The notes beneath the pieces are model-generated. The model did not search any database and had not been told where the DNA came from. It saw nothing but the letters and a program-made list of their open reading frames with translations. 23,550 bases of DNA, from the NCBI GenBank assembly GCA_037381445.1, contig JARRQT010000046.1, positions 1 to 23,550 of the forward strand, given 5' to 3'. Shown one piece after another: positions 2,136 through 23,550 of the stretch; within the stretch, counting starts at the first letter, position 1; each line of letters opens with the position of its first letter. Origin of the DNA: Calditrichia bacterium (GTDB lineage: Bacteria; Calditrichota; Calditrichia; RBG-13-44-9). The translations under genes and the position numbers were made by a program.

Positions 2136-2152
2136 ATACAGGATGGCATTCG

Positions 2153-3427: not shown

Positions 3428-3476
3428 TTATGTAAAAACATTTTGTTGGAAGATAAATCTGGTAGGGTAAATTATT

Positions 3477-5111: not shown

Positions 5112-5180
5112 TTGCGGATTTCGCTGAATTGTTCGATGGTATTTTGCAAACAGATATTAAACTTTGACTGAAGTTACATT

Positions 5181-6245: not shown

Positions 6246-6269
6246 AAATAACTTGAGGATATAATAGAA

Positions 6270-6779
6270 ATGATTCAGTTGATCTTATTTTCCATATTTG
6301 CCGGACTCGCCGTATTGGGTGGAATAATGGTGATTGCTCACCGGAACCCGATCTACAGTGCGCTTTTTCTTATTCTCACGTTATTTGCATTGGCCGGCGA
6401 ATATGTGTTGCTGCTCGCTCATTTTATTGCGGTCGTCCATGTGGCGGTGTACGCCGGGGCCATCATGGTGCTCTTCCTGTTTGTTATCATGCTTCTGAAT
6501 ATCCGAACCGAAACCCAGGCACCGGGTGCCTTTCGCTACATGATCTACATTGCCATTCCGCTGGCGGTACTGCTTTTCCTGGAATTGGGATATCTGGCAT
6601 TCCAGGGATTCAGCGAAGTAACTGTTAAGGCCAATACCTTCGGCACCGTGGAAAGTCTGGGGAATGCCCTGTTCAGCACCTATGTGCTTCCATTTGAAAT
6701 TACTTCCATTTTGCTGCTGGTGGCCATGCTGGGGGCGCTTTATCTCTCAAAACGAAAATTATCAGAAGTGAAAGAATAA
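6270..6779 (+). CDS. nuoJ: NADH-quinone oxidoreductase subunit J
   Basis: [43 protein letters not shown]; five hydrophobic segments. Confidence 0.96.
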
Positions 6780-6789
6780 AGGTGTATTC

Positions 6790-7098
6790 ATGCAAGGAAT
6801 TCCCATATCATATTTCTTAATACTGGGCGCAGTTCTCTTTTCACTGGGCGTGATTGGTGTGGTTACCAGACGAAATGCCATTATCATTTTCATGTCGGTG
6901 GAATTGATGCTGAACGCCGTGAATCTGACCTTCATTGCTTTTTCAAATTATCTGGGAAATATCGAGGGGCAGATGTTTGTTTTCCTGGTGATGGTGGTTG
7001 CTGCGGCCGAAGTCGCCGTGGGATTAGCGATCATCGTGGCGATCTATCGCCTGCGGGAAACGGTGCATGTGGATGAAATCCGGCTGCTCAAGTGGTAG
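6790..7098 (+). CDS. nuoK: NADH-quinone oxidoreductase subunit K
   Basis: [32 protein letters not shown]; 102 aa with three TM segments. Confidence 0.97.
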
Positions 7099-7206
7099 TA
7101 ACGAAATTTCAGTGCTGCGAATGATGAAGGCGGAGATTGCTGCCTTACATGCTTAATAAAAAAAGGTTGATCGACACACATTCCGGAAAAATACGGAGAT
7201 AAATAG

Positions 7207-9038
7207 ATGGAACGCTTTATCTGGTACATTCCCTTTCTTCCGCTGCTGGGTGCGGTAATAAATGGTGTCTTCGGGCGCTTGCTCAAAGAAAAAGCGGGGT
7301 GGGTTGCCAACGCGACAGTTCTCACCAGTTTTATTCTCTCGCTGTTTGCTTTTGCCCGCGTTTTGAACGGGCAGACTTTTAACGGGGACCTTTTCACATG
7401 GATTCAGGCCGGGAGTTTTAAGGCAACTTTTGGGGTCCTGATTGATCCGCTGTCCATTGTGATGATGCTGGTGGTCACAGGCGTTGGTTTCCTGATTCAC
7501 TTCTATTCAATTGGCTATATGCATGGGGATGAGGGAGTGGCGCGTTATTTCTCTTTCCTGAACCTGTTTATTTTTTTCATGCTCATGCTGGTGATGGGGA
7601 ATAACCTGCTGCTGCTCTACCTCGGCTGGGAAGGCGTTGGTTTGTGTTCTTATCTGCTGATCGGTTTCTGGTATGAAAAAGAATCCGCGGCCAGGGCGGG
7701 GATGAAAGCGTTTATCACCAACCGGGTCGGGGATTTCGGTTTTGCGATCGGGATCATGCTTATTTTTACTACCCTTGGGACAATCAGTTACACCGGGATT
7801 TTCTCCCAGACTGATAAACTGTTGAGTGCCGGTGTGCTGACCGCCGCTGCGCTGCTTCTCTTCCTGGGTGCGACCGGAAAATCCGCGCAGTTTCCCCTTT
7901 ACATCTGGCTCCCTGATGCCATGGAGGGTCCCTCGCCCGTCAGCGCGCTGATCCATGCTGCAACCATGGTGACGGCCGGGGTTTACATGGTGGCCCGCTT
8001 TAGTCCGATCTTCAGCCTTTCGTCCGCAGCCATGACTGTGGTAGTGGTTATCGGAACATTCACCGCAATTTTCGCGGCAACCATGGCCCTGGTCAATAAG
8101 GATATAAAGAGAGTACTGGCTTACAGCACCATCAGCCAGTTGGGGTAGCCTTTTTTAAGGCCCTTCTCTTTTTGGGAGCCGGTTCGGTAATGCATGCCCT
8201 GGCGAATGAAACCAATATTGATAAAATGGGCGGACTCTTTTCAAAGATCAAAATTACCGCGATCACATTTTTTATCGCGGGGCTGGCGATTGCCGGCGTG
8301 CCTCCTTTCAGCGGGTTCTTCTCCAAGGACGGCATTCTGGCCGGCGCGTTTGCCTACAGTCCCATTGTCTGGGCCTTTGGCGTTTTTGGCGCGTTCCTGA
8401 CAGCATTTTATATGTTCCGCCTCATCTTTATGACCTTCTTTGGCGAATCCCGGGTGGAACCCGAAGTCGCCCATCATATTCACGAATCACCGCGCGTTAT
8501 GACCGCTCCGCTGATGGTGCTTGCCCTGCTTGCTGTTATCGGGGGCTGGGTGGGAATCCCCGAGGGGCTGGGCGGTGGAAACCATTTCGAACATTTCCTG
8601 GCCCCGGTATTCCGGAGTGCCCATGAACATCTCCATATGGTCCATGTTTCTCATTCCATGGAATATCTGCTGATGACCGTTTCCATTGTGCTGGTATTCG
8701 CCGGGATTCTGCTCGCCTATCTGATGTATGTCAGCGGCAGCATCAGCCCGGTCAAAATGGCGGCGCGGGCCAAGGGATTCTATAAGGTGCTGTATAACAA
8801 ATATTATGTGGATGAAATATACAATGCCGTCATTTACCAGCCGATCATCCGGGGAAGCCGCTGGTTATGGGAGGTGTTCGATAGTAAGATTATTGACGGT
8901 ATTGCCAATCTGCTCGGCAAAATTGCGATTCTGATTGGCCTCATCGTGCGCCGGGTGCAGACCGGGTATGTACAGAATTATGCGGCATTTCTGGTGCTGG
9001 GCGCAATTATTATTCTGGGTTACTATTTGTTAAGCTAA
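7207..9038 (+). pseudogene. nuoL: NADH-quinone oxidoreductase subunit L, disrupted as sequenced (ORFs 7207-8148 and 8172-9038)
   Basis: The 5' part has GWEGVGLCSYLLIGFW, TNRVGD, GKSAQFPLYIWLPDAMEGP and ends AYSTISQLG-TAG. From 8148 another frame resumes at AFFKALLFLGAGSVMHAL, with FSGFFSKD and NKYYVDEIY. The ~21 residues normally between these motifs are absent. Identity is certain; whether the lesion is biological is not. Confidence 0.85.
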
Positions 9039-9063
9039 TATAAACGAAAGTTTTTGGAGAAGT

Positions 9064-10659
9064 TTGATGATGAATCTGGTGTCGTTACTCAACATAGTAA
9101 CATTTCTTCCGCTGCTGGGCGTGGTCATTCTGCTTATGATCCCAAGGACCGAGGAAAAGCTGGTCAAGAGCTGGGCGTTTCTGGTAAGTCTGATTACCTT
9201 TCTGCTTTCGCTGCCCCTATTCTATGGCTTCAAAGGCGGTGTGAGCACAATCCAGTTTGAGACCATTAAGCACTGGATCCCCACTATGGGCGCCTCCTAT
9301 CACGTGGGAGTGGATGGCATCAGCATTCTCATGTTCATGCTGACAACGTTTATCATGCCCATTGCTATCCTTGCTTCCTTCAGCGCTATCAATACCAGGG
9401 TAAAAGAGTATATGATCGCCATGTTATTCCTGGAAACCGGGATGATGGGCGTATTCATTTCTCTCGATCTCCTGCTGTTTTATGTTTTCTGGGAAGCCAT
9501 GCTGATCCCGATGTACCTGCTGATCGGAATATGGGGCGGACCGCGGCGGATTTATGCTGCCATAAAATTCGTGCTTTTCACTATGGTTGGTTCGGTGCTG
9601 ATGCTGGCCGCCATTCTCTACCTGTATTTTATGTATCACAATTACACTGGCGTTTATACTTTTAATTTGCTGAAAATCTATGAAATGAACATACCGTTTG
9701 ATCTGCAGATTTGGCTGTTTGCAGCGTTCGGGCTGGCGTTTGCCATTAAAGTGCCCATGTTCCCCCTGCATACCTGGCTGCCTGATGCACACGTGGAGGC
9801 GCCCACCGCCGGCTCCATTATTCTGGCAGGCATACTGCTGAAAATGGGAACGTATGGATTTCTGCGCTTCAACCTCCCGCTATTCCCCGGAGCGGCGGCA
9901 TATTTTACGCCCCTGTTTTTTATCCTCGCTACCATTGGAATCCTTTACGGCGCCTGGGTGGCGATGGTGCAGAAAGATGTCAAAAAGCTGGTCGCCTACT
10001 CATCGGTAGCCCATCTTGGATTTGTAATGCTGGGGATTTTTGCCCTGACGGTGCAGAGTGTGCAGGGCGGCATCATTCAAATGGTAAATCATGGCTTATC
10101 CACCGGGGCGCTTTTCCTTGCAGTGGGAATGATCTATGAGCGGCGCCATACCCGGAATATTGAAGATTTCGGCGGAGTGAGCAAGGTCATGCCGGTTTTC
10201 GCTGCGCTGTTTCTGATTGTCTGCCTGTCCTCCCTGGGTCTGCCAGGCACCAACGGCTTTATCGGTGAGTTCCTGATTCTGATCGGTACCTTCCAGGTGA
10301 CAAAAACTTTTGCCATCCTCGGGACGGCAGGGATTATTTTCGCCGCGGTTTATTTGCTGTGGATGTATCGCAGGGTGATGTTCGGTCCCATTACCCGGGA
10401 TGAAAACCGTAAGCTTGTGGACCTCAACGGGCGCGAGATCGGAACCCTTCTGGCGCTGATCTTCTTCATTCTCTGGATCGGTGTCTATCCAAAAACATTC
10501 ATGGACAAAACGGAAGCGACGGTTGTCAATCTGATTCAAAAGGTAAAAACCGGCCAAGTTGTTATGGAGCGCGAAAATAGGGCTCCCATATTCGGACAAT
10601 TTTTGAATATTTACAAGAACACCGCTCAGAAAAATTCACAGGAATTGTCCCAAAGATAA
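9064..10659 (+). CDS. nuoM: NADH-quinone oxidoreductase subunit M (likely start ATG 9067 or 9070)
   Basis: GVDGIS, FYVFWEAMLIPMY, IKVPMFPLHTWLPDAHVEAPTAGS, LLKMGTYG, GFIGEF; GGAG at 9056-9059. Confidence 0.97.
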   Translation: MMMNLVSLLNIVTFLPLLGVVILLMIPRTEEKLVKSWAFLVSLITFLLSLPLFYGFKGGVSTIQFETIKHWIPTMGASYHVGVDGISILMFMLTTFIMPIAILASFSAINTRVKEYMIAMLFLETGMMGVFISLDLLLFYVFWEAMLIPMYLLIGIWGGPRRIYAAIKFVLFTMVGSVLMLAAILYLYFMYHNYTGVYTFNLLKIYEMNIPFDLQIWLFAAFGLAFAIKVPMFPLHTWLPDAHVEAPTAGSIILAGILLKMGTYGFLRFNLPLFPGAAAYFTPLFFILATIGILYGAWVAMVQKDVKKLVAYSSVAHLGFVMLGIFALTVQSVQGGIIQMVNHGLSTGALFLAVGMIYERRHTRNIEDFGGVSKVMPVFAALFLIVCLSSLGLPGTNGFIGEFLILIGTFQVTKTFAILGTAGIIFAAVYLLWMYRRVMFGPITRDENRKLVDLNGREIGTLLALIFFILWIGVYPKTFMDKTEATVVNLIQKVKTGQVVMERENRAPIFGQFLNIYKNTAQKNSQELSQR

Positions 10660-10695
10660 TGAAGTTATAACGGTTTGATTGGAGGAATATAGTAG

Positions 10696-12123
10696 ATGTC
10701 TGTGAATCTTGGCAGTTCGGATTTTCTGGGAATACTCCCGCATATGATTCTGGCCGTTTTCGGTATTTACCTGATGGCCCAGGGAGTATTTACATCGAAC
10801 CGGAAAGTTATCGCATATTTAGGATTGGTCGGAATTGCGCTGGCGATCATCGGGAATTTCTTCCTGGTGGGCAAAGACTATACCGCATTCGGAGAAATGA
10901 TAAGAGTTGACCGTCTCTCGGTAATATTGAATTTCATTTTCCTGGTCACCGCCGGCTTAAGCCTTCTGATGGCCACCAGTTATTCCGAGCAGGTGAATGT
11001 GGAATTTATCGAATTTACTCCGCTGGTTCTCTTTTCCACGGTTGGAATGATGCTGATGGGAAGCGCCGGTCATCTGATGATAATCTTTCTGGGACTGGAA
11101 ACCATGTCCATTGCCCTGTATGTGATGGCGGGCTTTCGGCGTGACAACCGTTATTCCCTGGAGGCGGCTCTAAAATATTTTCTGCTGGGAGCGTTCGCTA
11201 CCGGTTTTCTCCTTTACGGCATTGCCCTCATCTATGGAGTAGTGGGCAGTACCGATCTGAATTCGGTCTCGGAATATTTTACCAAAAATTCTCTGTCCAC
11301 TAATCTTTTGGCAACTGTTGGACTGGGCTTGCTGATTGTCGGCTTCGGATTTAAAGTGGCGCTGGTGCCGTTCCATATGTGGACACCGGATGTGTATCAG
11401 GGAGCTCCCATGCCGGTTACCGCCTACATGGCGGTGGGCGCCAAGGCCGCCGGATTTGCGGCAATTCTCAGGGTCATTTTCCAGAGCGCTTTTTATGTTT
11501 CTTTCCAGTGGTCCCATGTTTTGTGGATACTCGCGATTCTTACCATGACGGTAGGGAATATCATCGCGCTGGTACAGACTGATATTAAAAGAATGCTGGC
11601 CTACTCCAGCATCGCCCATGCCGGCTATCTTCTGGTGGGTGTTGTTGCCGGGAATGACCTGACGACCCCCAGTGTCATTTTTTACCTCATCGCTTATCTT
11701 TTCATGAACATTGGTGCTTTTGCCGTGGCCGAACTCGTCAGCGGCAAAGATGAGCAGAAGACCAGTATCGAAAATTTCAAGGGGCTGGGCTACCGTCAGC
11801 CGCTGCTGGGCCTGGTGATGGGTATCTGCATGTTCAGTCTGGCCGGATTCCCACCCACAGCCGGTTTCATTGGGAAATTCTACCTGTTCAGCGCTGCCAT
11901 GCAATCCGGTTATGTCTGGCTGGTTATTGCAGGGGTGCTGAATTCATTTCTTTCTGTCTATTATTATCTGCGGGTGGTTGTCGCCATGTATATGCAGGAT
12001 TCCACGGAAGAAGCGCCCATGGCCCCGGTATTACCAGGTGTCGGTGTGGTTTTGCTTTTTACCGCGATTGGTGTTTTATACCTGGGCGTCTTTCCGGGAA
12101 GTCTGATGGGCATGTTATTTTAG
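10696..12123 (+). CDS. nuoN: NADH-quinone oxidoreductase subunit N
   Basis: LETMSI, EAALKYFLLG, FKVALVPFHMWTPDVYQGAP, KRMLAYSSIAHAGY, GFIGKFYLF; GGAGG RBS at 10681-10685. Confidence 0.97.
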   Translation: MSVNLGSSDFLGILPHMILAVFGIYLMAQGVFTSNRKVIAYLGLVGIALAIIGNFFLVGKDYTAFGEMIRVDRLSVILNFIFLVTAGLSLLMATSYSEQVNVEFIEFTPLVLFSTVGMMLMGSAGHLMIIFLGLETMSIALYVMAGFRRDNRYSLEAALKYFLLGAFATGFLLYGIALIYGVVGSTDLNSVSEYFTKNSLSTNLLATVGLGLLIVGFGFKVALVPFHMWTPDVYQGAPMPVTAYMAVGAKAAGFAAILRVIFQSAFYVSFQWSHVLWILAILTMTVGNIIALVQTDIKRMLAYSSIAHAGYLLVGVVAGNDLTTPSVIFYLIAYLFMNIGAFAVAELVSGKDEQKTSIENFKGLGYRQPLLGLVMGICMFSLAGFPPTAGFIGKFYLFSAAMQSGYVWLVIAGVLNSFLSVYYYLRVVVAMYMQDSTEEAPMAPVLPGVGVVLLFTAIGVLYLGVFPGSLMGMLF

Positions 12124-12149
12124 GAAAAAGAGAAAATGTAAGTTTTGCG

Positions 12150-12187
12150 GCCCGGGATCTGAGTCCGATTCCGGGCTTTTGTTTCTT
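12150..12187 (+). terminator. Intrinsic terminator of the nuo operon
   Basis: Stem GCCCGGGATC (12150-12159) / GATTCCGGGC (12167-12176) with one G-U pair and a 7-nt loop, followed by TTTTGTTTCTT, 26 nt after the nuoN stop. Confidence 0.85.
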
Positions 12188-12422
12188 AAATAGAGTCGAA
12201 AATTAAATTTCACTGCACGTGTTTTGAATCATTTTTCTGTCGGCAGAACGGATCTAAATTGGAAATGTTCATTGTGGCAATAGAATTCAGGCTTAACGTG
12301 CGATTTCGGGTATCTTAAATGGATCTGATTAAATGGTCAAGCATTTTGGAAATCTGTTATTAAATATCAATATTTAAAGAGCCTAATATTTGAATTATTT
12401 TAATTTTTACTTTAAATTTAGC

Positions 12423-12451
12423 TTGATTTAATTTGCTCAGCATGATAAATT
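12423..12451 (+). promoter_or_regulatory. Candidate sigma70-type promoter for the porV cluster
   Basis: TTGATT (12423-12428), 17-nt spacer, TAAATT (12446-12451) with extended -10 TG at 12443-12444, below a very AT-rich upstream tract. AT richness raises the chance of a random match. Confidence 0.55.
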
Positions 12452-12489
12452 CTTGCGAAGATTAAAATTTTTGAGGGTGCGTATCGAAA

Positions 12490-12630
12490 TTTGTTAAGGA
12501 TGAATAGGCAGCAGAATCAGTAAAAGTAAATTTTTGGTTGTTAATAACTGTTCCTTAACAAAGTCTGGTAGTGCGCCCAAACGATGGAGCCGAATGTCGC
12601 TTGGGTAAGTTTGAAACATTCGGTTTTTTT
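12490..12630 (+). promoter_or_regulatory. Putative structured 5' leader / attenuator upstream of porV
   Basis: Perfect 11-bp inverted repeat 12490-12500 / 12552-12562; overlapping stems 12575-12584/12597-12606 and 12588-12597/12616-12625; T7 run at 12624-12630; RBS GGAGG at 12640-12644. Confidence 0.45.
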
Positions 12631-12651
12631 ATTTAATCTGGAGGTTTAATA

Positions 12652-13758
12652 ATGAGAGCCTTTTTATCGCTTTTAATAGTGGTTATGTTTGTTCCGGCAT
12701 TGTTCATTGGCTTGCATGCCCAGGGCGAAGCCACTGTTCTGTTTTTGATGATAAACCCTGGGGCCCGTCAGGGAGGCATGGGGGAAGCTGGCGTTGCTTT
12801 GGCGAGCGATGCAAATGCCATTTACTGGAACCCGGCAGGACTTGCCTTCCAGTACAACGATCCCGAAGTGGATAAGAAGGGCGAAGCCACGCTGATGCAT
12901 GTGAACTGGCTGCCGCAGTTCAATCTGGGAGACATGTATTATGATTTTGCAGCGGGCCGTTATTATATCCCCGATGTGGGCACTGTTGGACTGGGTATTC
13001 AGTACATGAATTACGGAAAAAGTATCTACACGGATGAAACCGGTCCCGATCCCCTGGGCGAATTTAACAGCAGTGAGGCGGCTGTAACTGCCAGTTACGC
13101 CCTCAAGGTGAAAGAGAATGTGGGCGTTGGCGTGAACCTGAAATATATCTATTCACGTCTTTCCCCGAAGGAAGTGCAGGTTGGCGCTGAAAAAGGCCGT
13201 GGAATTGCTTCTTCTTTCGCCGTTGATATCGGCGCTTTGTATCATCCCGGTTTCGCCAAAAATTTAAGTTTGGGTGCAAATATCAGCAATATCGGCCCCA
13301 AGATTTCTTACGTGGATTATGCCCAGGCCGATCCGCTTCCCACCAATCTGCGCCTCGGTTTCGCTTACCACCTGTTCAAGAGCCAGTACAACACCCTCAC
13401 GCTGGTTTATGATACCAATCGTCTGCTGGTGCATCGCTATACCACGGAGGACAGCGTGAATGTAGTGGACGGTGTGTTCAAAGCCATGTTTTATTCCACC
13501 TGGAAAGGCGGCGGTTTTTCCGGTCAGTTGAAGAAATTCACCCATTCCCTGGGACTGGAATACTGGTATACGGACCTCATCGCGCTGCGCATGGGCTATT
13601 TCTATGAAGACCCCAGCGCCGGCGGCCGTAAATTCTGGACATTTGGCGGCGGACTTCGCTATTCAGTATTTGGATTTGATTTTAGTTATATCTATGCATC
13701 GGTGAATGATCACCCGCTTTCCGATACCATGCGCTTTTCGTTGGGCATCCAATTCTAG
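12652..13758 (+). CDS. porV: PorV/PorQ-family (FadL-like) outer-membrane beta-barrel, T9SS shuttle-like
   Basis: Signal peptide (GLHA|Q); FLMINPGARQGGMGEAGVALASDANAIYWNPAGLAF, NWLPQF, NIGPKISY...LPTNLRLG, LRMGYFYE and HPLSDTMRFSLGIQF, all PorV-typical, with terminal Phe. Confidence 0.85.
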   Translation: MRAFLSLLIVVMFVPALFIGLHAQGEATVLFLMINPGARQGGMGEAGVALASDANAIYWNPAGLAFQYNDPEVDKKGEATLMHVNWLPQFNLGDMYYDFAAGRYYIPDVGTVGLGIQYMNYGKSIYTDETGPDPLGEFNSSEAAVTASYALKVKENVGVGVNLKYIYSRLSPKEVQVGAEKGRGIASSFAVDIGALYHPGFAKNLSLGANISNIGPKISYVDYAQADPLPTNLRLGFAYHLFKSQYNTLTLVYDTNRLLVHRYTTEDSVNVVDGVFKAMFYSTWKGGGFSGQLKKFTHSLGLEYWYTDLIALRMGYFYEDPSAGGRKFWTFGGGLRYSVFGFDFSYIYASVNDHPLSDTMRFSLGIQF

Positions 13759-13773
13759 AAAAAACTTGAAAAT

Positions 13774-13814
13774 TTAAAAAACTCCTCGTTTTATGTGAGC
13801 GGGGAGTTTTTTAA
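13774..13814. terminator. Bidirectional-type intrinsic terminator after porV
   Basis: TTAAAAAACTCCTCGTT...AGCGGGGAGTTTTTTAA inverted repeat with G-U pairs, with A6 before and T6 after the GC core. Confidence 0.8.
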
Positions 13815-13847
13815 TCTGAAGCTCGGTAATACGAGGAATGGATTTCT

Positions 13848-16800
13848 GTGATGAAAATGAGATATTTTTTTGGGCTGTCTGCCTTTGCTTTCCTGCTGCT
13901 GTCACAAACCATATTTGCCGCTCCCGTTCAATCCGATACCATTCGTGTGCTGGGAATTCGGGTGGAATTCAAAGTTGACGATGCCAAAACTACCAGCGGC
14001 GACGGCAAATTCAATCTTTCGCAGCCCAGCGGACCTTATCAGATCGATCCGCCGCCCCACAACAGAAGCTATTTTCAGGATCATATGATCGCCCTCAGGA
14101 ATTATTTCCGGAAGGTGTCCGGGGGAAAACTGGTCATTGAAGGAGATGTTTATCCGGAACAGCAGGATGCAGCCTATCAGCTGCCCAATCAGATGACCTA
14201 TTACAATCCCAATACCACGCCCGATCAGATCAATACCGGTCTGGCCAATCTGATGCGGGATGCCTTTGGGAGCGCCGATGTGGACCCGGCGATCGATTTC
14301 AGCAAATATCAGAGCTTTGTGGTTTTTCATGCCGGGGTGGGAAAAGATGTGGAACTGGGAGCGGATGAAACGCCCCAGGACATCCCTTCTCTTTTTATCA
14401 CTCAAAAATTTCTGGATACCTATCTTAATCAGAAACCTATCCTGGTGGATGACGGAACGGTGCAGATTAAAAACGGCATGCTGATTCCGGAAACGGAAAC
14501 CCAGGAGGGTATCGAGCTTGGCCTGAACGGTATTTTTGCATCGAATTTCGGTTCGCAGCTGGGGTGGCCCGATTTGTTCAGTCCCGAAACCAGGCGTTCC
14601 GGGATCGGGCGTTTCGGCCTCATGGATGCCGGCCTGTTCAACGGCGATGGCCTGCTGCCTGCCGTCCCTTGCGCCTGGACCCGCACATATGCCGGATGGA
14701 GCGAACCGATCAATATCTATTATTCGCCGAATGATGAATTGCAGATACATCCCCCGCTGTCTCCCTCCCGGGAAAACCTCTACCGGGTGCCGATTAACGA
14801 AAAGGAATACTTTCTGGTGGAAAACCGTTACTCCGGCAAATATAAACTGGACAGTCTGCAGTATGAGCTGAGCCAGGGCCGCGACGTTTATCCCTCCATG
14901 AAGGAAGTCCTGCTGCTTCCTGAATTGGCGGACCAGGTTACCTTCAGCGACAGCACTGGCGTGCTGATCGATGTCAAAAATCCCGATCTCGGATTATCCG
15001 GAAACGGCTGTCTCATCTGGCATATCGACGAGAATGTGATTGAACAGAATCTGGCGACAAATACCATCAATGCTGATCCGGAGCACCGCGGGGTGGACCT
15101 GGATGAGGCTGATGGTTCGCAGGATATCGGCCAGGAATTTGATTTTCTGAGCGCCGGCGCTGGTTCGGAAAACGGATGGATTCTGGATATGTGGTACAAG
15201 GGGAACGATGCCCCGCTTTTTAAGAACAGGTTTTCTCCAAACAGCGTTCCCAATAGCCGCAGTTACTATAATCGGGCCAACAGCCATATCACCATTTCCG
15301 ATTTTTCGGCACCGGATTCAGTCATGAGTTTTCGGGTAAATTTTGATATTTACCAGCAGAATTTTCCTAGGGCAATAAATCCGCAGACCTATGGCCGGAT
15401 TACTTCGCTCAAAGTCAGTGATCTGGATTTTACGGGCGAAAATGATCTTATTCTGACCACAGACAGATCAAAAATCCTGGTGGTAAGCAAATCGGGGGAA
15501 TCGGTTTGGGGAAGCGACTCGCTGGAGATTGCCGAGCTGCCTGGAAAAATATTGCCGCCACCCGCTCTCTTTTCCGTTCCGACCGCCGCGGGGAATCAGG
15601 TAAAAGCACTTGTGGCGCTGACGACGGACGGCGGCGTTTTCGGCTTCAGGTTCACCGGCACAACATTTGATACTCTCTTTGACGCCTTCAAACTATCCAG
15701 TGCCATCACAACTTTTCCCACGGTTTTCTATGATGCTGATAGAATTCCCAATGTGGTTTGGGGAACTGAGGCTGGTCGGGTTTACCGGATGAATATCGCT
15801 GATGCGGATTCGCCGCCGGATACCAGCGCCTACGCGGTCGGAGAAGCGGTGAAGTTCCTGCATGTAAACGGGGATAATCAGATCATCGCGGTCACGGTAT
15901 CCGGCAAGGTATACCGGAATGATCAGTTGATCGGTCAGACCGGGCTGCCCTATTTTTCGCCGGTTGGGAATTCTGCGGCGGCCCTGACCAGAAACGGGGA
16001 ATTCCTGTCCCTGGAGCAGCCGGTCTCTCAGGGTGCGGAGAGCGGACTATTCCGTTTTGATTCACCTATGATTTCTTATCTGTTTGATGAGAATTCCGAA
16101 AATCCGGTTTACTTCGTGGCGGGAAATAATAATCTGTATTCTTTCAATTATAACTACACGCTTTCTGACAATTTTCCGGTTCCCATTTACAAGCCGGCCA
16201 GGAATATCAGTCTTGCCCTGTCGCCGCTGCTGGGCAAATTTTTTAATTCCGGTCAGGCGGAAGAATATGGAATCGTGGTGGCCGATCCGGCAGGGCTCAT
16301 AGATGGATTTGATCTGCAGGCCAAACAGTTGTCCGATTTTCCGCTGGCCCTGGGCGATTCCCTCACGGTAACCCCGGCCCTGCTGGATATCGACGGGGAT
16401 AAAGATGTTGAGATTGCCGCCGGTGACCGGAACGGGATTCTCTATATCTGGGACCTGGCTGCCCAATTTTATCCACAGGGCTGGAATCAGTTATATTCCG
16501 ATGAGAGCAACAGCAACCGGCCGCTGGCTCCCTCCGGAACCGTGCCGCCGGTTGAGCAAACCAAATACGCGCAGCTTTTGCCGAAAGAACGCGTTTACAA
16601 TTGGCCCAATCCCAATACCCGGGATTTTACTTTCATTCGCTACTATCTGACAGAGCAGGCGCAGGTGTCGATCAAGATTTATGATCTGGCAGGCGATCTG
16701 GTAAATGAGTTTCCGGGTTCGGGGGACGCACTGACGGCGAATGAAGTCCGCTGGAATCTGCAGGATGTGCAGAGCGGTGTTTATTTTGCCCGGGTCCATG

Positions 16801-16856
16801 CAAAAAGCAGCAGCAGGGACGAAACCCGGATAATAAAAATTGCGGTGGTAAAATAG
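13848..16856 (+). CDS. Secreted M6 (immune inhibitor A)-like metalloprotease homologue with degenerate zinc motif, FG-GAP-like repeats and T9SS type A-like C-terminal sorting domain
   Basis: Signal peptide; VLGIRVEF, NYFRKVSGG, VVFHAGVG, ASNFGSQLGWPDLF, FGLMDAG, EYFLVENR, GCLIWHIDE and GVDLDEADG are M6-type motifs; DLDFTGENDLI and DIDGDKDVEI repeats; C-terminal VYNWPNP...IKIYDLAG...SGVYFARV...KIAVVK. Confidence 0.8.
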   Translation: MMKMRYFFGLSAFAFLLLSQTIFAAPVQSDTIRVLGIRVEFKVDDAKTTSGDGKFNLSQPSGPYQIDPPPHNRSYFQDHMIALRNYFRKVSGGKLVIEGDVYPEQQDAAYQLPNQMTYYNPNTTPDQINTGLANLMRDAFGSADVDPAIDFSKYQSFVVFHAGVGKDVELGADETPQDIPSLFITQKFLDTYLNQKPILVDDGTVQIKNGMLIPETETQEGIELGLNGIFASNFGSQLGWPDLFSPETRRSGIGRFGLMDAGLFNGDGLLPAVPCAWTRTYAGWSEPINIYYSPNDELQIHPPLSPSRENLYRVPINEKEYFLVENRYSGKYKLDSLQYELSQGRDVYPSMKEVLLLPELADQVTFSDSTGVLIDVKNPDLGLSGNGCLIWHIDENVIEQNLATNTINADPEHRGVDLDEADGSQDIGQEFDFLSAGAGSENGWILDMWYKGNDAPLFKNRFSPNSVPNSRSYYNRANSHITISDFSAPDSVMSFRVNFDIYQQNFPRAINPQTYGRITSLKVSDLDFTGENDLILTTDRSKILVVSKSGESVWGSDSLEIAELPGKILPPPALFSVPTAAGNQVKALVALTTDGGVFGFRFTGTTFDTLFDAFKLSSAITTFPTVFYDADRIPNVVWGTEAGRVYRMNIADADSPPDTSAYAVGEAVKFLHVNGDNQIIAVTVSGKVYRNDQLIGQTGLPYFSPVGNSAAALTRNGEFLSLEQPVSQGAESGLFRFDSPMISYLFDENSENPVYFVAGNNNLYSFNYNYTLSDNFPVPIYKPARNISLALSPLLGKFFNSGQAEEYGIVVADPAGLIDGFDLQAKQLSDFPLALGDSLTVTPALLDIDGDKDVEIAAGDRNGILYIWDLAAQFYPQGWNQLYSDESNSNRPLAPSGTVPPVEQTKYAQLLPKERVYNWPNPNTRDFTFIRYYLTEQAQVSIKIYDLAGDLVNEFPGSGDALTANEVRWNLQDVQSGVYFARVHAKSSSRDETRIIKIAVVK

Positions 16857-16946
16857 AATAAGCGGCGGCTGGTCGATGCCCTGCTTTTTGAAGTCGCCGT
16901 TTAATAAATTGGATTTAAAAATCAGCTTCAGAAGTGTGAATATTTT

Positions 16947-19900
16947 ATGAGATTTTTTCTAATGTCAAAGAGATCGAATTCCGGTTATTTTTTGCCAATA
17001 AATAAACTGCTCTGGTCGTTCGCCTTCCTTTTTCTTCTTTTCGCCACTTCCCGGGCGCAGGACGGGTTTTACTATCACCCGGAACTGAATTGGCGCACCT
17101 TTGAGACGGAACATTTTATTATCGACTATCATGACGGCACGGAACGGACCGCCAATCTGGTTGCGAAAATCGCCGAGGAAGTCTATCCCCATGTCACCGG
17201 ATTATATCAGTACTGGCCGAAAAGCAAGACGGTTCTGGTCATTCGCGACACGGATGACTATTCCAACGGCGGTGCGTACTATTATCACAATAAAATTGAG
17301 ATCTGGGCGCCCAACATGGATTTCCTTCTGCGCGGCACCCACAACTGGCTGCGGGATGTGGTCACCCACGAGTTCACCCATATTATCTCATTACGCAAAT
17401 CTTTTAAATTCGGGCCTAATGTGCTGGCAGGCTGGTTTCAGGTTTTTGGATATGAAGGTGAACGGCGGAAGGATGTTGTTCGTGGTTTTCCCAATGTAAT
17501 GGTATCTTATCCCATTTCCGGCATTACGATTCCCGGATGGTTTGCCGAGGGCGTGGCCCAGTTCCAGTCGCCGGGCGGACGCTACGATTACCGTGATTCT
17601 CACCGGGAAATGGTTCTGAGAGACCGCGTGGTTAGCGGCAACCTGCTCGATCTGAAACAAATGGGCGTTTTTGGCAAGAACAGTGTCGGCAATGAATCGG
17701 TTTACAACCAGGGATTCGCTTTCGTCCGTTTTCTTTCCCGGACATTTGGCGACAGTGTGCTGCGGAATATTGCCCACCAGGCCTCATCACCGGTAACCAT
17801 CGATTTTGACAATGTGCTGAAAAATGTAACCGGCATTCCGGCTGACAGCATCTATGACATGTGGAAAGCCCATCTCCAAACCACTTACGGCCAGCGCCTA
17901 ACCACGGTGGAAGCGCATCTCAAGACCGGCGATCCTATTCAGGGCAACGGAGTCGGAAATGTTTTTCCGGTTTTCTCTCCGGACGGCAAAAAGGTCGCTT
18001 ATCTGGAAAGCATGTCCGATTACATGTCCGTGAATGCACTGGTCGTGGAGGACCTGGAAACCAGGGAGAAACTGAGAGTCGCAGGTCCGGTTTCTGGTTC
18101 CATTAGTTGGTCACCGGACGGCAGGTACCTGACCTATGCCAAGGTAAAGAATCTTGCTCCCAACCGGAACGGATTCAATGAGATCTTTGTGTATGATCTG
18201 AAAAGGCATCGGGAACTGCAATTGACGCGGCTGATGAGAGGCATCAATCCTGATTGGTCCCATGACGGCAAAAAACTTGTTTTTGTGGTGCAGAGTGACG
18301 GTGTCAATAATCTGGTGACGCTGACGCTGGACGAATTTGTGTGGATCAAGAAAAAGTCGCTGTGGCATACCCGCTATTACGATTTGGAGGGCCACCGAAT
18401 CGTAACACGCATCCCCGCCGAAAGAAGAAAAAATTGGCAGGAGTATTATCGTCCCCTGCAGTTCTGGGGGCAGGATCTGCAGCAGATCACATTTGAAAAG
18501 GGCGGACGTCAGTTCTTCCATCCCCGCTGGTCACCGGATGACAGCTACCTGATATTTGACACTTCCACCGAGAACTGCCGGGACATTGCCAGAATACCTT
18601 CCAGTGGGGGAGAACTTAAGTTTGTCCTCAATGAAAAATATGATGAAAGATATCCTTCTTTCGACCCGGCAACCGGAGAGCTCTATTTTGCCAGCGACCG
18701 CACCGGCATTTTCGATATCTATTCCTGCGATCTTAAAACCGGTGAAATTAAGCCGCATACCAATGTAGTGGGGGGCGCTTTCATGCCCACCGTGAACCGC
18801 AGGGGTGACCTTATTTACAGCCTTTACAAGGATCAGGGATATAAAATATACCGCATACGTAAAGTAAATGAACTCCCTCCGGCCTATCTGACTTACCAGG
18901 AAAATTATGAGTCACAGATACCGGTCATCCATGCCGATGACTCTCATTTTGCTTCCCGGCCTTCCAAACCTTACAAGAGAAGCTTCGGCCCCGTTTTCTT
19001 TATGCCACGCCTGCTGATCGATTACGGCACCATAAAACCGGGTTTCTATGTCGGTTCGGATGAGCTTCTGGACAAAATGACATTTTTTGGCGGCGGCGAC
19101 GTTAATAAGGATTTCGAGTATAATTTATTCGCGCTTTTCGAATTCCGGTTTATCCATCCCCTCATTTTCTTCAATTTCTATAATCAGTCCGCCAAAATTG
19201 AAGACCATTTGTCCGATCCCTTCTATGAAGCCCAGAGCAAATTCGATGTTAACTTCAACTTGATGGAAGCGGAGCTGGGGTTATCGCAAAGAATGTTTGA
19301 TTTTGTGGACACGAAATTGAATTTTATCTACCGCTTCTACCGCGCCAAAATCGGGACCTTCGCCTACCGGGAATTGTCCACGGGCCAGATGTATGTTTCT
19401 CCGCCCATTCGCTACACTTACCTCCGGGGATTTGCTACTTCCATTTCCCTGAAGAAAGATGAGGTGCTGCCGGAACGGGACAGCAATATCAATCCCCGGG
19501 TGGGTTACTATGCCTATTTCAAATACACCCATGAAAATGAAAATTTCCTGCGGGACTTCGCCACCGACCGGGCGGTGGGACTGGAAGAGTATGATGCTTA
19601 CCGCTACAACCAACTGGAACTGGATGTGGAAAAATATCTGCCGGTTCCCTACACCAAACATCATTCACTGAGTCTGCGGTTTCAGGGCGGGTACATCGAC
19701 CGGCGGGTGGATGATTTCTTTAATTTCTTTGCCGGCGGCCTCATTGGAATGAAAGGATATTCCTACTACAGCATTGAAGGCCGCAAAATGGCAATCGGCA
19801 CCGTAAACTACCGGATGCCGCTGGTGAGAAACCTGAATTTCCAGATTTTTAACTGGTATCTGGATAAAATATACCTGGGCGGTTTTTACCAGTACGGCAA

Positions 19901-20141
19901 CGCCTGGAACGCGGCCACGCCCACACTGAATAATTTCAAATCGGACATGGGAGTCCAACTGCGTCTGGAAACCTTTTCCTGGTATATGTTCCCCACCCGG
20001 ATATTCTTTGAAGCGGCCTATCCGTTGAACGAGCAGCTCAACCGGGGCATCACCTACAACCGGGAATGGAAGTTTTATGCGGGCGTTCTGTTTGATTTCG
20101 ATTTGAGATTTGATAAAGCAATGAGGAAAAAAAGATGGTGA
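16947..20141 (+). CDS. Fusion of gluzincin (MA-clan) peptidase domain, TolB-like (PD40) beta-propeller and Omp85/BamA-like beta-barrel
   Basis: Signal peptide (SRA|Q); HEFTH (17367-17381) plus PGWFAEG; repeats PVFSPDGKKVAY, ISWSPDGRYLTY, PDWSHDGKKLVF, PRWSPDDSYLIF, YFASDRTGIFDIY; C-terminal amphipathic strands with FFAGGLIGMKGY, YGNAW and KSDMGVQLRL. Confidence 0.75.
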   Translation: MRFFLMSKRSNSGYFLPINKLLWSFAFLFLLFATSRAQDGFYYHPELNWRTFETEHFIIDYHDGTERTANLVAKIAEEVYPHVTGLYQYWPKSKTVLVIRDTDDYSNGGAYYYHNKIEIWAPNMDFLLRGTHNWLRDVVTHEFTHIISLRKSFKFGPNVLAGWFQVFGYEGERRKDVVRGFPNVMVSYPISGITIPGWFAEGVAQFQSPGGRYDYRDSHREMVLRDRVVSGNLLDLKQMGVFGKNSVGNESVYNQGFAFVRFLSRTFGDSVLRNIAHQASSPVTIDFDNVLKNVTGIPADSIYDMWKAHLQTTYGQRLTTVEAHLKTGDPIQGNGVGNVFPVFSPDGKKVAYLESMSDYMSVNALVVEDLETREKLRVAGPVSGSISWSPDGRYLTYAKVKNLAPNRNGFNEIFVYDLKRHRELQLTRLMRGINPDWSHDGKKLVFVVQSDGVNNLVTLTLDEFVWIKKKSLWHTRYYDLEGHRIVTRIPAERRKNWQEYYRPLQFWGQDLQQITFEKGGRQFFHPRWSPDDSYLIFDTSTENCRDIARIPSSGGELKFVLNEKYDERYPSFDPATGELYFASDRTGIFDIYSCDLKTGEIKPHTNVVGGAFMPTVNRRGDLIYSLYKDQGYKIYRIRKVNELPPAYLTYQENYESQIPVIHADDSHFASRPSKPYKRSFGPVFFMPRLLIDYGTIKPGFYVGSDELLDKMTFFGGGDVNKDFEYNLFALFEFRFIHPLIFFNFYNQSAKIEDHLSDPFYEAQSKFDVNFNLMEAELGLSQRMFDFVDTKLNFIYRFYRAKIGTFAYRELSTGQMYVSPPIRYTYLRGFATSISLKKDEVLPERDSNINPRVGYYAYFKYTHENENFLRDFATDRAVGLEEYDAYRYNQLELDVEKYLPVPYTKHHSLSLRFQGGYIDRRVDDFFNFFAGGLIGMKGYSYYSIEGRKMAIGTVNYRMPLVRNLNFQIFNWYLDKIYLGGFYQYGNAWNAATPTLNNFKSDMGVQLRLETFSWYMFPTRIFFEAAYPLNEQLNRGITYNREWKFYAGVLFDFDLRFDKAMRKKRW

Positions 20142-21067
20142 ATTTGGTGAAGTATTCCTTTTTGGCGGTTCTGTTCGCCGGAGTGGCAGCGCAGGCGCAG
20201 ACAACCTTTCGCTGGAATAATGATGATCTGGTGGTGCAGCGCCTGGAATTGAGACAGAAAGCCGCAGCTCAGGCGAAGACGGATGACCCGTCCGTTCAGG
20301 ATTTCGATGAAGTTCACAAGTTGTCGGTGGGAAAATCGGTGCTTTTTTCTCTGGCGGTGCCGGGAGCGGGGCAGTTCTATTCCAAATCCTATGTTAAATC
20401 CGCCATTTTTCTGGCCGTCGAGGCGGGCGCCTGGGCGACCTACTTTGCTTACATGAAAAAAGGCGACAACAAAGATGCGGAGTTCAAACAGTATGCCGAT
20501 CAGCGCTGGAGCGAATACCGCTACTGGTCATATGTGAATTATAAAGCGGCCACTGAAATGGAAAATCCGCCAGAGCTGTATCCCTATGATGAAGTCGACG
20601 CGCCCAACGGCGGCAGGTGGTATCTGATTCCGGAGGATTATTATAACGCCCACAAGAGTGAAATTATCGGCACGCTGCGCGAGATTGAAGCGAGCGGGAA
20701 TGTTGGCTTCACTCACCGTTTGCCCACGACCAAAACGCAGCAGTATTATGAAATGATCGGCAAATATCCCCATCAGTTCGGTTCGTCCTGGGATGATGCC
20801 AGTTTCGACCGCGTTTACAGCGGTCCCGATCAGATTACGGCACATAATAATTACTACACTGACATGCGGGATCAGAGCAACCGCTTTTATGACATTGCCG
20901 GTTACGGAACTATGGTCGCTCTGGTCAATCATGTGATTTCTGCGATCGATGCCGGGTTCACCACCCGCCGCTACAACCGGAACCGTGTCCGGCTGGAAAT
21001 GAGCTACAATAACATGTATTATAAGAGCGAGTATGTAAATCTGCTGGGCGTGAATGTAAAATGGTAA
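20135..21067 (+). CDS. Exported/membrane protein of unknown function (DUF5683-like SLxxPGxGQxY motif)
   Basis: Signal peptide (AQA|Q); SVLFSLAVPGAGQFY, hydrophobic helix, NHVISAIDA and C-terminal LLGVNVKW; start overlaps the upstream stop (ATGGTGA). Confidence 0.7.
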   Translation: MVNLVKYSFLAVLFAGVAAQAQTTFRWNNDDLVVQRLELRQKAAAQAKTDDPSVQDFDEVHKLSVGKSVLFSLAVPGAGQFYSKSYVKSAIFLAVEAGAWATYFAYMKKGDNKDAEFKQYADQRWSEYRYWSYVNYKAATEMENPPELYPYDEVDAPNGGRWYLIPEDYYNAHKSEIIGTLREIEASGNVGFTHRLPTTKTQQYYEMIGKYPHQFGSSWDDASFDRVYSGPDQITAHNNYYTDMRDQSNRFYDIAGYGTMVALVNHVISAIDAGFTTRRYNRNRVRLEMSYNNMYYKSEYVNLLGVNVKW

Positions 21068-21226
21068 GCCGGCAGGAATAGTTGTTTTAATTCCTCCGCT
21101 GTGTGGGAACAGAAGCAGTTAAGCCGGGAATTCAGAATCACAAATTTAATCCTTGGCTATTTTCAGAAATTATAGTAGATTCAGCCTGTCAGTGCAAATC
21201 TATAAATTGTTTTAAAGGGATTTTAC

Positions 21227-21940
21227 ATGAATATCAAGAAATGTCACATTATTATAATTTTGCTCGTTGCATTTTCGTTATCTTCCGCACAAATGCTGCA
21301 GACACCCTCAACTAAATTTGCGCTGAAACAGAAAGACCAGGCATCGGGTGCAGAGCAGCCGGGATTCAAGGCAAAATACGTATTGCTTTCACTGATATTG
21401 CCTGGTGCGGGAGAATACTTTATGGGGCATCATACCATGGCGAAAATATTTGTCGGAGCCGAAGCGCTTCTCTGGGCAGGATACCTGGGTGCCCGCGCCT
21501 ATGCCAATGAGCTGGAGGGCAATTTCCAGGCCTTTGCCGCCGTGCATGCCGATGTGAATCCCCATGACAAGTCCGACCAGTACTGGATTGATATTGGGAG
21601 CGCCGAAAATATCTATGTCTACAATGAGCAGAAAAGAGTCGAACGTCAATTGAAGGCCACCTATCCCGAAACCGCCGCCAATTACTGGCAGTGGGATTCC
21701 CGGGCCAACCGCTCCGAGTATACGGATTTGCGAATTCAGCAGCATGACTGGAAGCGCCGCACTACATTTGTGATCAGCGGCATGATTCTCAACCGTCTGG
21801 TAAGCGCAATTGACGTGATCCGCATCATCAAAAAAGAGAAACGTGAATCCCAGTCCCGTATGTCCAGACTTTATTTTGATTACCGGAATAATCGTATTGA
21901 CGGTGAAGTTTACCGCTTGAATTTAAGTCTGAGGTGGTAG
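21227..21940 (+). CDS. Exported/membrane protein of unknown function, paralogue of 20135-21067
   Basis: Signal peptide (SSA|Q); LLSLILPGAGEYF, hydrophobic helix, NRLVSAIDV and C-terminal YRLNLSLRW. Confidence 0.7.
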   Translation: MNIKKCHIIIILLVAFSLSSAQMLQTPSTKFALKQKDQASGAEQPGFKAKYVLLSLILPGAGEYFMGHHTMAKIFVGAEALLWAGYLGARAYANELEGNFQAFAAVHADVNPHDKSDQYWIDIGSAENIYVYNEQKRVERQLKATYPETAANYWQWDSRANRSEYTDLRIQQHDWKRRTTFVISGMILNRLVSAIDVIRIIKKEKRESQSRMSRLYFDYRNNRIDGEVYRLNLSLRW

Positions 21941-21942
21941 AA

Positions 21943-22839
21943 ATGGAAGCATCAGGGGCGAAACAAAAAGTCCTGATAACAGGAGCTTCCGGATTTTTGG
22001 GCCGTTACCTGCTGAAAACCGCCCCCTACCATTACCAGGTAATCGCCCAGTACCGCAGCAAGCCGCCCAATGAATACGGACGGGATGTCAGATTCTTGTA
22101 TTTTGATTTTTTTGATGATGATTGGCGCGCTTTGGAAGGGATCCGGCCTGATATCATTATCCATACCGCGGCCATGGCTTCCATTGATGAATGCGAAGTC
22201 AAACCGGAAATCGCCTACCATTTTAATTTTGAAGTTACCCGCCGACTGGTAGATTATGCCGCGGAACAGAACATCAAATTCATTTTCATTTCGTCCGATG
22301 TCGTATTCGATGGCCAGAAGGGAGACTATTCGGAGACAGACGAGCCGAATCCTCTGAATGTTTACGCGCACTCGAAAGTGATTGCGGAAAATTATATTCT
22401 GGAAAACTATCCTTCCGCCGTTGTGGTCCGTCCATCCCTGTTTTACGGGTCTGCGCTGAACGGGCGGCCCTCTTTCACCGAGACCATGCTTCGCAGCCTG
22501 CATGCCGGGAAACAGGTTTTTGTTTTCACTGATCAGTTCCGCACCCCCATTCTGGTTAACAATCTGAGTCATGCCTTGTGGGAATTGGCCGAAACTGATT
22601 TCAGGGGGATCTTGCACCTGGGAGGCGGTTCGCCGAAAATTTCCCGGATGGAGATGGGGGAATTACTGTGCGAGATGTTCAAACTGGACCAGAATCTGCT
22701 GGTGCCGATGAAGTCGGAACAGGCGAATCTGGTGGCAAACCGGCCCCTGGACTGCTCGCTGGATACCTCCCTTTCCCGTTCTTTACTGAAAACCCGCTTT
22801 TGCGACTGCCGCAACGGCTTTAGTCTGGCCTACCGGTAA
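21943..22839 (+). CDS. RmlD/RfbD-like extended SDR (dTDP-4-dehydrorhamnose reductase family); GTG 21934 is the alternative start
   Basis: VLITGASGFLG, HTAAM...DECE, ISSDVVFDG, YAHSK (YxxxK), TDQFRTP and RPLDCSLD; GAGGTGG RBS at 21931-21937 fits ATG 21943. Confidence 0.85.
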   Translation: MEASGAKQKVLITGASGFLGRYLLKTAPYHYQVIAQYRSKPPNEYGRDVRFLYFDFFDDDWRALEGIRPDIIIHTAAMASIDECEVKPEIAYHFNFEVTRRLVDYAAEQNIKFIFISSDVVFDGQKGDYSETDEPNPLNVYAHSKVIAENYILENYPSAVVVRPSLFYGSALNGRPSFTETMLRSLHAGKQVFVFTDQFRTPILVNNLSHALWELAETDFRGILHLGGGSPKISRMEMGELLCEMFKLDQNLLVPMKSEQANLVANRPLDCSLDTSLSRSLLKTRFCDCRNGFSLAYR

Positions 22840-23158
22840 GGCCTTCCAGATTAAGAATTCTCACCAAAATCAAAATCAGTATCAAATCGGTTTGCTTTCT
22901 TAAAGGGAACGACCGCACGCAGGAAATTGAACAAATCTTTCAGATCATCGTTAAGAATGAAATGTTTTTTGAAAGAGGCATGCATTTTTTCGGGCGCGGA
23001 GAAGCTGGAATCGGGACTCTTCTTAAGCAGCGTTGAACGATCTATTGCTCTGAAAAACTGACCTATCTGCAGGAAAGAAGTACTCTCAGTCACAACTAAA
23101 TTTGAATGGTGAGATTATCTTTGAAATCATGATTTTTAAAACCACACAGGAGGCTCGA

Positions 23159-23550
23159 ATGTACAAGAATCTGTCATTTGCCGGAGTATTTGTTTTATTG
23201 TTTCTGTTTTCTTCTTTGAATGCCCAGAGTTTGCGGATTGGTCCTCAGATTGGATATCAGAAAGCTCAGGATGCGGATAAGGGACAAGTGATGTTTGGCC
23301 TGGCCGCCCGCCTAAAAGTATTGCCCATGCTGGGTGCGGAAGCTTCTATCAATTACCGGCAGGAAAAATACGGAGACGGGGAATTGACCATCCGCAGCTG
23401 GCCGGTTATGGTGAGCGGTTTGTATTATCCATTGCCCATTATCTACGGAATCGTTGGGTTCGGATGGTATAACACCACCTTTGATTTTTCTAGCCAACTG
23501 AATGATGCGGGATTCGCCGATGAGACAAAGCAGGAAGTCGGATGGCATTT
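23159..23550 (+). CDS. Small outer-membrane beta-barrel (OmpA/OmpW-like porin family) protein, 3'-truncated by the window edge
   Basis: Not in the ORF track because it has no stop. AGGAGG at 23148-23153, then MYKNLSFAGVFVLLFLFSSLNA|QSLRIGPQIGY...FGLAARLKVLPMLGAEASINY...IYGIVGFGWY...EVGWH with alternating amphipathic strands; open to the end. Confidence 0.75.
   Translation, partial: MYKNLSFAGVFVLLFLFSSLNAQSLRIGPQIGYQKAQDADKGQVMFGLAARLKVLPMLGAEASINYRQEKYGDGELTIRSWPVMVSGLYYPLPIIYGIVGFGWYNTTFDFSSQLNDAGFADETKQEVGWH

Follow-up and report, generated by a model that had tools for sequence, protein, structure and literature searches.

A conserved gene module linked to the type IX secretion porU–porV operon in Calditrichota and related bacteria

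How a type IX secretion system (T9SS) works is understood almost exclusively from Bacteroidia, in which a proton-driven motor pulls the shuttle PorV together with its cargo off the translocon. In F. johnsoniae, release of PorV–cargo from SprA depends on the motor and is the energy-requiring step (PMC10994853, available text). Other phyla of the Fibrobacterota–Chlorobiota–Bacteroidota (FCB) group have been listed as possible T9SS holders (PMC11285876, available text), and only PorV, SprA and Plug are reported for Ignavibacterium and Melioribacter in the accessible part of PMC11705866. The DNA analyzed in this work is a contig of 23,550 nucleotides (hereafter “the window”; JARRQT010000046.1, C46 in our numbering) from a Calditrichota genome of 5.1 Mb and 92% completeness (GCA_037381445.1, hereafter G000). 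It carries five co-oriented genes on the + strand, encoding a PorV barrel, an inactivated M6 protease homologue (M6i), a fusion of a gluzincin peptidase, a propeller and an Omp85 barrel (Omp85f), and two small related proteins (smA and smB). Together they represent a conserved extension to the T9SS porU–porV operon and not a porU-less oddity, and we consider it very probable that they belong to a T9SS locus.

A preliminary description of this DNA, made from the letters alone, had proposed the five co-oriented genes, the PorV barrel, a 1002-aa M6 homologue with a C-terminal domain (CTD) and without zinc ligands, the gluzincin–propeller–Omp85 fusion, and two related small proteins, the first of them overlapping the stop of the Omp85 gene; all of these stand. 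The distances between consecutive genes, from porV to smB, are 89, 90, -7 and 159 nt, and the 7-nt overlap of the smA start with the Omp85f end reads ATGGTGA. The genes and their main parts are the following:

12652..13758, + strand: porV, 368 aa, T9SS shuttle barrel (NF033710)
13848..16856, + strand: M6i, 1002 aa, with a signal peptide, a predicted dead M6 domain, an FG-GAP-type propeller region and a type A CTD (NF052323)
14541..14573, + strand: degenerate zinc motif SNFGSQLGWPD of M6i, residues 232-242
16587..16853, + strand: the M6i CTD (type A), a conserved variant unlike the bulk cargo CTDs of the genome
16947..20141, + strand: Omp85f, 1064 aa, with a signal peptide, a gluzincin domain, a TolB-like propeller and a 16-stranded Omp85 barrel
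17085..17915, + strand: gluzincin domain of Omp85f, approximately residues 47-323 (HEFTH at 17367-17381, E201 at 17547-17549)
17931..18857, + strand: β-propeller of Omp85f, approximately residues 329-637
18996..20093, + strand: Omp85-type barrel of Omp85f, residues 684-1049 (loop-6 MKGY, strand-13 YQYGNAW)
20135..21067, + strand: smA, 310 aa, DUF5683-related, with a signal peptide, the motif SxxxPGxGQ, a helical hairpin and a C-terminal β-hairpin
21227..21940, + strand: smB, 237 aa, a shorter smA paralogue

The gene order is kept far beyond this genome. Forty Calditrichota loci were chosen for their long contigs among the 85 genomes with an NF052323 match, and porV, M6i, Omp85f and smA follow each other on one strand in all of them (in four, one gene is in pieces); smB comes next in 39, the remaining locus ending at the contig end. 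A second set was taken from metagenomes with an alignment of 59 Omp85f orthologues as the query, keeping the best 80 of 521 confirmed stretches. M6i stands upstream of Omp85f in 74 of these 80; five of the other six offer less than 700 bases on that side, and in the sixth an inserted gene is followed by the contig end. Wherever there was room for them, porV was present in 49 of 49 metagenome loci and smA in 62 of 65. The neighborhood comparison suggested in the preliminary description has returned, for these loci, co-occurrence in a fixed order. This order is maintained across lineages at 36-41% Omp85f identity and, since the flanking genes vary from one lineage to another, the unit itself is what is conserved. 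Six loci (L008, L016, L017, L033, L048 and L060) have a gene of the unit in pieces, through sequencing error or a real break, and 12 loci carry an additional gene between M6i and Omp85f, whose product of about 220 aa shows a weak FlgD-like match (e.g., L114:6849-7529).

The connection with the T9SS comes from the relatives. Among the 44 metagenome loci with room, none of them from Calditrichota, porU is found immediately before porV in 32 (all nine checked pass NF033707), and sprA lies downstream of the unit in seven of the full set of 80 (both of those checked pass TIGR04189). The T9SS link of the preliminary description is thus upheld, whereas its porU-less variant is not. The absence of an adjacent porU is correct for this locus, but the gene is present elsewhere in G000, spread over two contigs (C219, over the cut-off, and C301, with the C-terminal part), and elsewhere in 35/35 Calditrichota genomes tested. 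The module is not strictly non-Bacteroidota either, as some orthologues carry the names of Ignavibacteria, Rhodothermales or “Bacteroidota bacterium.” In the seven loci with sprA (L069, L071, L072, L078, L099, L110 and L119), this gene lies a few kb past smA, beyond an lptF/lptG pair on the opposite strand; where upstream DNA is available, a single neighborhood takes in porU, porV, the module and sprA. In four Calditrichota loci (G062:C61, G063:C12, G065:C1 and G069:C10), porU is located approximately 13-17 kb upstream of the operon's porV, perhaps a trace of an older porU–porV linkage, and nuo-like genes stand upstream of porV in some of these.

On a quick Omp85f tree, the porU-linked loci form one clade among the rows listed, with the exception of L103, and those with smB are arranged as a grade about a KSB1 protein; the M6i of one member of the porU clade has named relatives from Ignavibacteria or “Bacteroidota bacterium.” smB follows smA in Calditrichota and KSB1-like loci, and was not found at that place in Ignavibacteria-like loci. 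Across L047-L126, smB is absent in 27 of 28 porU-adjacent loci with room and present in 10 of 10 without an adjacent porU; this anticorrelation follows the tree and may reflect only ancestry. More distant Omp85f orthologues were sought by a profile search of 1.84 billion representatives, with 30 clusters inspected; the few that carry a taxon name belong to KSB1, Calditrichota, Latescibacterota, Gemmatimonadota, Rhodothermales and Marinimicrobia, where Rhodothermales, Marinimicrobia and Latescibacterota are represented by protein matches only, their neighborhoods lying outside the sample. Atlas look-alikes of M6i or smA, to be taken as leads only, come from Ignavibacteriota, Balneolota, Zixibacteria, WOR-3 and Cloacimonadota.

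Other parts of a T9SS are encoded in G000 and throughout the phylum. The SprA translocon is on contig C78 and in 56/56 Calditrichota genomes, a PorZ-like gene is present in G000 and in 30 of 35 phylum genomes (over the cut-off in one), and a home-made profile of type A CTD cargo gave 130 C-terminal matches in G000. The window PorV is over the NF033710 cut-off (271 vs. 250 bits), and its Toluene_X match is weak; PorV is, we presume, FadL-like. The genome encodes 24 PorV-family genes over the cut-off, among which the window porV scores highest (334 bits, with 255 for the runner-up), its closest paralogue being 30% identical. Since a CTD-bearing gene directly adjoins 10 of these 24 genes, many PorV-family proteins would seem to be cargo-specific shuttles.

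M6i passes the cut-off of NF052323, an NCBIfam family named “T9SS-dependent M6-like inactivated metalloprotease,” across its full length (622.3 vs. 600 bits). In a good alignment, its zinc site reads SNFGSQLGWPD, against HEFGHxLGLPD in two active M6 paralogues that G000 also encodes; both His residues and the catalytic Glu are gone and the Asp is retained, so that the HExxHxxGxxD motif of active M6 proteases is lost. The first two motif positions carry neither His nor Glu in 43/43 Calditrichota sequences, and a search for HExxH anywhere in 57 M6i sequences (56 metagenome loci and the window) found none. M6i is accordingly predicted to be catalytically dead. The FG-GAP assignment of its propeller region was taken from Pfam marks on relatives, and no clear solved structural relative was found by sequence. 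Its CTD is a specialized one: the median score against the bulk-cargo CTD profile is 57 bits for M6i CTDs, 63 for PorU CTDs and 113 for the training set of the profile. The possibility of M6i as a PorZ substitute was rejected, because a separate PorZ-like gene exists in 30 of 35 genomes; its match to the PorZ model NF052228 is confined to the CTD. The gene is near-universal in the phylum, with NF052323 matches in 85/86 genomes and in 53/53 good ones.

In the AlphaFold model of Omp85f (predicted local distance difference test 84, predicted TM-score 0.83), a peptidase domain is followed by a propeller and, after a linker, by 16 barrel strands. The barrel matches PF01103 (35.9 bits, cut-off 24), the propeller region contains PD40 repeats, and TolB is the top match of the propeller by both sequence and fold; only propeller matches appear among the rows shown of the fold search, where the barrel was not searched separately. 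H141, E142, H145 and E201 are invariant in 89/89 aligned orthologues, and the gluzincin active site (HExxH plus a downstream Glu) is therefore judged intact and the domain a predicted peptidase. In the barrel, the loop-6 motif, VRGF/Y in the Omp85 signature, is MKGY in the window and LKGY or LRGY in relatives; like the strand-13 motif, it is degenerate, though it can still be recognized.

The two small proteins are related to each other (BLASTP E 2e-8; hhalign 99.85%). The smA model (predicted local distance difference test 89.8) consists of a long helical hairpin, a conserved head (QQYYExIGKY) and a C-terminal β-hairpin. The preliminary description called both proteins unknown: they are indeed uncharacterized, but DUF5683 (PF18935) matches 89/89 smA orthologues at E<=0.01 (best 2e-10) through an N-terminal SxxxPGxGQ-helix motif. 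The window smA itself gives 22.3 bits, under the cut-off of 26.7, and the window smB gives no match. The “Trp-ended” label was rejected as a feature, since the last residue is W in only 48/97 smA and 8/58 smB orthologues; it is hydrophobic in 96/97 and 57/58, respectively. The last strands of smA and smB alternate hydrophobic residues like the last strand of PorV and finish in W, F or L. An alternating hydrophobic strand with such an ending is the pattern of an outer-membrane β-signal. The helical segments are moderately hydrophobic (mean window values of approximately 1), and the membrane-spanning element could be either the β-hairpin or the helices. As for fold relatives of smA, Foldseek found none at E<=0.001, the best VIA hits (Z 6.5) were generic helical hairpins, and its sequence profile had 0 matches against the PDB. 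Foldseek rows joining smA with GldM/PorM were dismissed (E>=0.2, TM<=0.16). A third DUF5683-like gene is present in G000 (C309:914-1426), encoding 170 aa without the head domain; its final alternating strand ends in Phe.

Broadly, we favor a T9SS accessory module in which a PorV-held, non-catalytic adaptor would be combined with a barrel-anchored assembly or quality-control peptidase serving smA, smB and the sorting step, a reading to which we give roughly even chances. The module is likely to act in the sorting step of FCB lineages outside the well-studied Bacteroidia. The gene order, the porU and sprA linkage in relatives, the degenerate M6 site, the conserved gluzincin site and the domain anatomy are observed directly, and from them we infer the interactions. 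PorV, judging by its NF033710 membership, would be the general shuttle taking CTD cargo out of SprA. M6i would be exported through SprA and retained on the surface via its specialized CTD, probably on the operon's PorV, its dead cleft and propeller making it a binding adaptor, comparable to the way in which PorV and PorQ hold PorU and PorZ. Omp85f would reside in the outer membrane, with the peptidase and the propeller on the periplasmic side, and may be a dedicated assembly or quality-control factor whose barrel engages β-signal clients, smA and smB first, and whose peptidase trims or clears those that stall. Finally, smA and smB would belong to the outer membrane, held there by the C-terminal β-hairpin and hydrophobic helices, and would bear the head on a helical stalk. 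Pointing this way are the smA start inside the Omp85f gene, the last strand of smA patterned like that of PorV, and the partial retention of Omp85 signature motifs in Omp85f.

Several observations weigh against this reading. All of its support comes from gene context and sequence anatomy; the loci were found via the Omp85f or M6i gene, and kin are not independent. smA is absent in 3 of 65 metagenome loci with room; smB is present in 20 and absent in 41 of 61, with a whole clade lacking it; and porU is detached from the operon in 46/46 Calditrichota loci. Compared with PorU CTDs, the M6i CTD scores no better than the bulk cargo CTDs do (median 31 vs. 34 bits), for which reason the idea of a specifically PorU-like CTD was rejected. 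The strand-13 signature of Omp85 proteins is (F/G)xDxG. The window has YQYGNAW, with Q for D, many relatives have xDxGxAW, and the D is kept in most non-Calditrichota rows shown in the alignment. No POTRA domain was found in Omp85f, in either the model or the domain search, and this absence together with the strand-13 substitution makes insertase activity doubtful; an enzyme-bearing Omp85 protein such as PlpD can be merely an anchored enzyme (PMC11116518, available text). Besides, G000 holds four more peptidase–propeller–barrel genes, each with HExxH (C55:9226-12348, C208:9505-12615, C31:22756-25596 and C186:2-2854), and other genes interrupt the unit in some loci.

These last points bring in another explanation, namely that the genes form a conserved envelope cluster without a shared machine, in which a common promoter and common expression needs would hold porV and one ancient cargo together with a barrel-anchored peptidase and two membrane proteins that have nothing to do with them. 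Each type of part is common in G000, which has the four other HExxH fusions, the third DUF5683-like gene and the 24 PorV-family genes; lptF/lptG also adjoin the unit in 17 loci, and some loci carry further genes between M6i and Omp85f. Peptidase–propeller–barrel Omp85 proteins are, in this sense, an expanded and uncharacterized class in this genome. Nonetheless, the order is kept at 36-41% Omp85f identity although the flanks change, and the Omp85f orthologues are a separate subfamily, distant from the paralogues (approximately 22-25% identity over the main aligned stretch). As profile searches of G000 found no second M6i or smA orthologue either, the operon linkage is specific to the Omp85f subfamily, and we regard a cluster held together by expression alone as unlikely.

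An explanation that seems to us distinctly improbable is that the module stands in for the T9SS motor and ring, freeing loaded PorV from SprA or stripping and destroying the cut CTD, with binding and proteolysis replacing the proton-driven pulling. The genome search for sprA, porU and the motor genes proposed in the preliminary description yielded the first two, and GldK/L/M/N were not detected in G000 (92% complete) in searches without a positive control, which divergent genes could escape. Across Calditrichota, where no motor-bearing control genome was included and sensitivity is therefore undemonstrated, GldN was found in 0/56 genomes and GldL in 0/35, and GldM was over the cut-off in 0/56, with two partial matches. 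This lack of motor matches sits beside SprA in 56/56 genomes, PorU in 35/35 and about 130 CTD proteins encoded in G000; release of PorV–cargo is, as said above, the energy-requiring step in F. johnsoniae (PMC10994853, available text), and the short list for Ignavibacterium and Melioribacter (PMC11705866, accessible part) agrees with it. On the other hand, the unit holds no inner-membrane energy coupler, the motor searches might miss divergent genes, and a TonB/ExbBD-type motor encoded elsewhere would be a simpler replacement. A broader version, in which the operon would be the missing half of an ancestral motor-less T9SS across most FCB phyla, its PorV-bound adaptor, peptidase-gated barrel and new class of outer-membrane proteins with a helical stalk and a β anchor of two strands releasing cargo from SprA or clearing the sorting domain, a task later assumed by GldKLMN in Bacteroidia, is a speculative one to which we attach little weight.

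We similarly give small credit to peptide capture and uptake, with a surface M6i displayed by PorV binding polypeptides uncut, the Omp85f barrel passing them and the periplasmic gluzincin cutting them: a dead protease cleft fits a substrate binder and an active-type peptidase fused to a POTRA-less barrel fits a gated pore, but the unit is single-copy and near-universal, as nutrient loci seldom are, it is tied to porU and sprA, and among the recognizable open reading frame clusters, which were not scanned against family libraries, none of TonB-dependent or peptide-transport type recurs next to it. Caldithrix does ferment peptides according to the available text of PMC5317091, in which the term “secretion” has 0 occurrences.

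Regarding the surroundings of the five genes, the first half of the window (390-12123) is occupied by complex I (nuo) genes. Judged by the translations, no nuoI stands between nuoH and nuoJ, and nuoL appears as two open reading frames (7207-8148 and 8172-9038), probably through a frameshift; contig C31 has another nuo-like cluster. The nuo run stops at 12123, and an AT-rich stretch then leads to porV (GC 0.42 at 12001-13000). The other flanking features are:

12149..12177, + strand: terminator-like hairpin of 11 pairs followed by a T run, 3' of the last nuo gene
21934..22839, + strand: RmlD-like short-chain dehydrogenase/reductase (SDR) gene, downstream neighbor outside the wider module
23102-23550: OmpA-like β-barrel open reading frame truncated by the contig end, with a score below the cut-off

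Because of the hairpin and the AT-rich intergenic region upstream of porV, the five-gene module is likely to have its own promoter, the unit starting at porV; 17 hairpins of terminator type were found against 13.8 in shuffles, which makes a single site weak by itself. The RmlD-like SDR gene follows in 26 of 40 Calditrichota loci by manual reading, and was rejected as a core part since its family is present in 2 of 80 metagenome loci.

Calditrichota thus encode a translocon, a shuttle, a sortase and about 130 cargo proteins, with no motor or ring detected in the searches described above. The genes welded to porU–porV are the first place to look for the workings of such a T9SS and for its ancestral form, and the module supplies specific candidates for the organization of a T9SS in which no motor can be detected. 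Three orphan families also receive their first functional context from the operon: the peptidase–WD40–Omp85 proteins, NF052323 and the DUF5683-like proteins.

Each part has already been catalogued, and for the combination a literature search, with subscription papers largely outside its coverage, found no published description. The novelty suspected in the preliminary description would accordingly lie in the combination and not in the parts: the M6 homologue is already NF052323, and the supplement of PMC4104836, in its available portion, contains aminopeptidase (1z5h) matches for WD40-like Omp85 proteins (17 occurrences). The latter (Heinz and Lithgow, 2014; PMC4104836) share with Omp85f an Omp85 barrel with an N-terminal TolB-like propeller; they differ in that the main text, as far as available, gives them no peptidase, function or gene context, and in that Omp85f forms a distinct subfamily tied to an operon, with 22-25% identity to the four paralogues. 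WD40-like Omp85 and similar subfamilies are called poorly characterized in the accessible part of PMC11116518. BamA/TamA insertases have the POTRA domains that Omp85f lacks. M6i passes NF052323 over its full length, and this is an annotation family with no function or partner seen attached; the neighboring numbers NF052323-NF052325 suggest that NCBIfam curators have looked at these T9SS variants. DUF5683 (PF18935) shares its N-terminal motif with smA, smA and smB adding a head domain, and a DUF5683 protein is on a P. gingivalis vesicle proteome list (PMC13744359, available text).

The β-barrel assembly machinery (BAM) of Bacteroidota with BamG and a surface canopy is comparable by analogy only: an Omp85 barrel is likewise found together with a FadL-family 14-stranded barrel holding surface proteins, but its BamA has POTRA domains and BamD, and BamH and BamM are lipoproteins and not CTD cargo (PMC12611786, available text). 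BAM chains were not among the structure or profile matches of the module proteins, no search having been aimed at BamG/H/M homology. The closest system is the T9SS porU–porV operon with the attachment complex PorU/V/Q/Z of P. gingivalis and F. johnsoniae. The present locus differs from it in three or four extra genes that we did not find described as T9SS parts, in the undetected GldK/L/M/N, in the detached porU of Calditrichota and in a PorZ separate from M6i. Both have a canonical PorV, with porU upstream in 32 of 44 related loci, and the genome of the window shares SprA, PorU and a PorZ-like gene with the described systems, along with a CTD-bearing neighbor of porV whose CTD is a specialized one.

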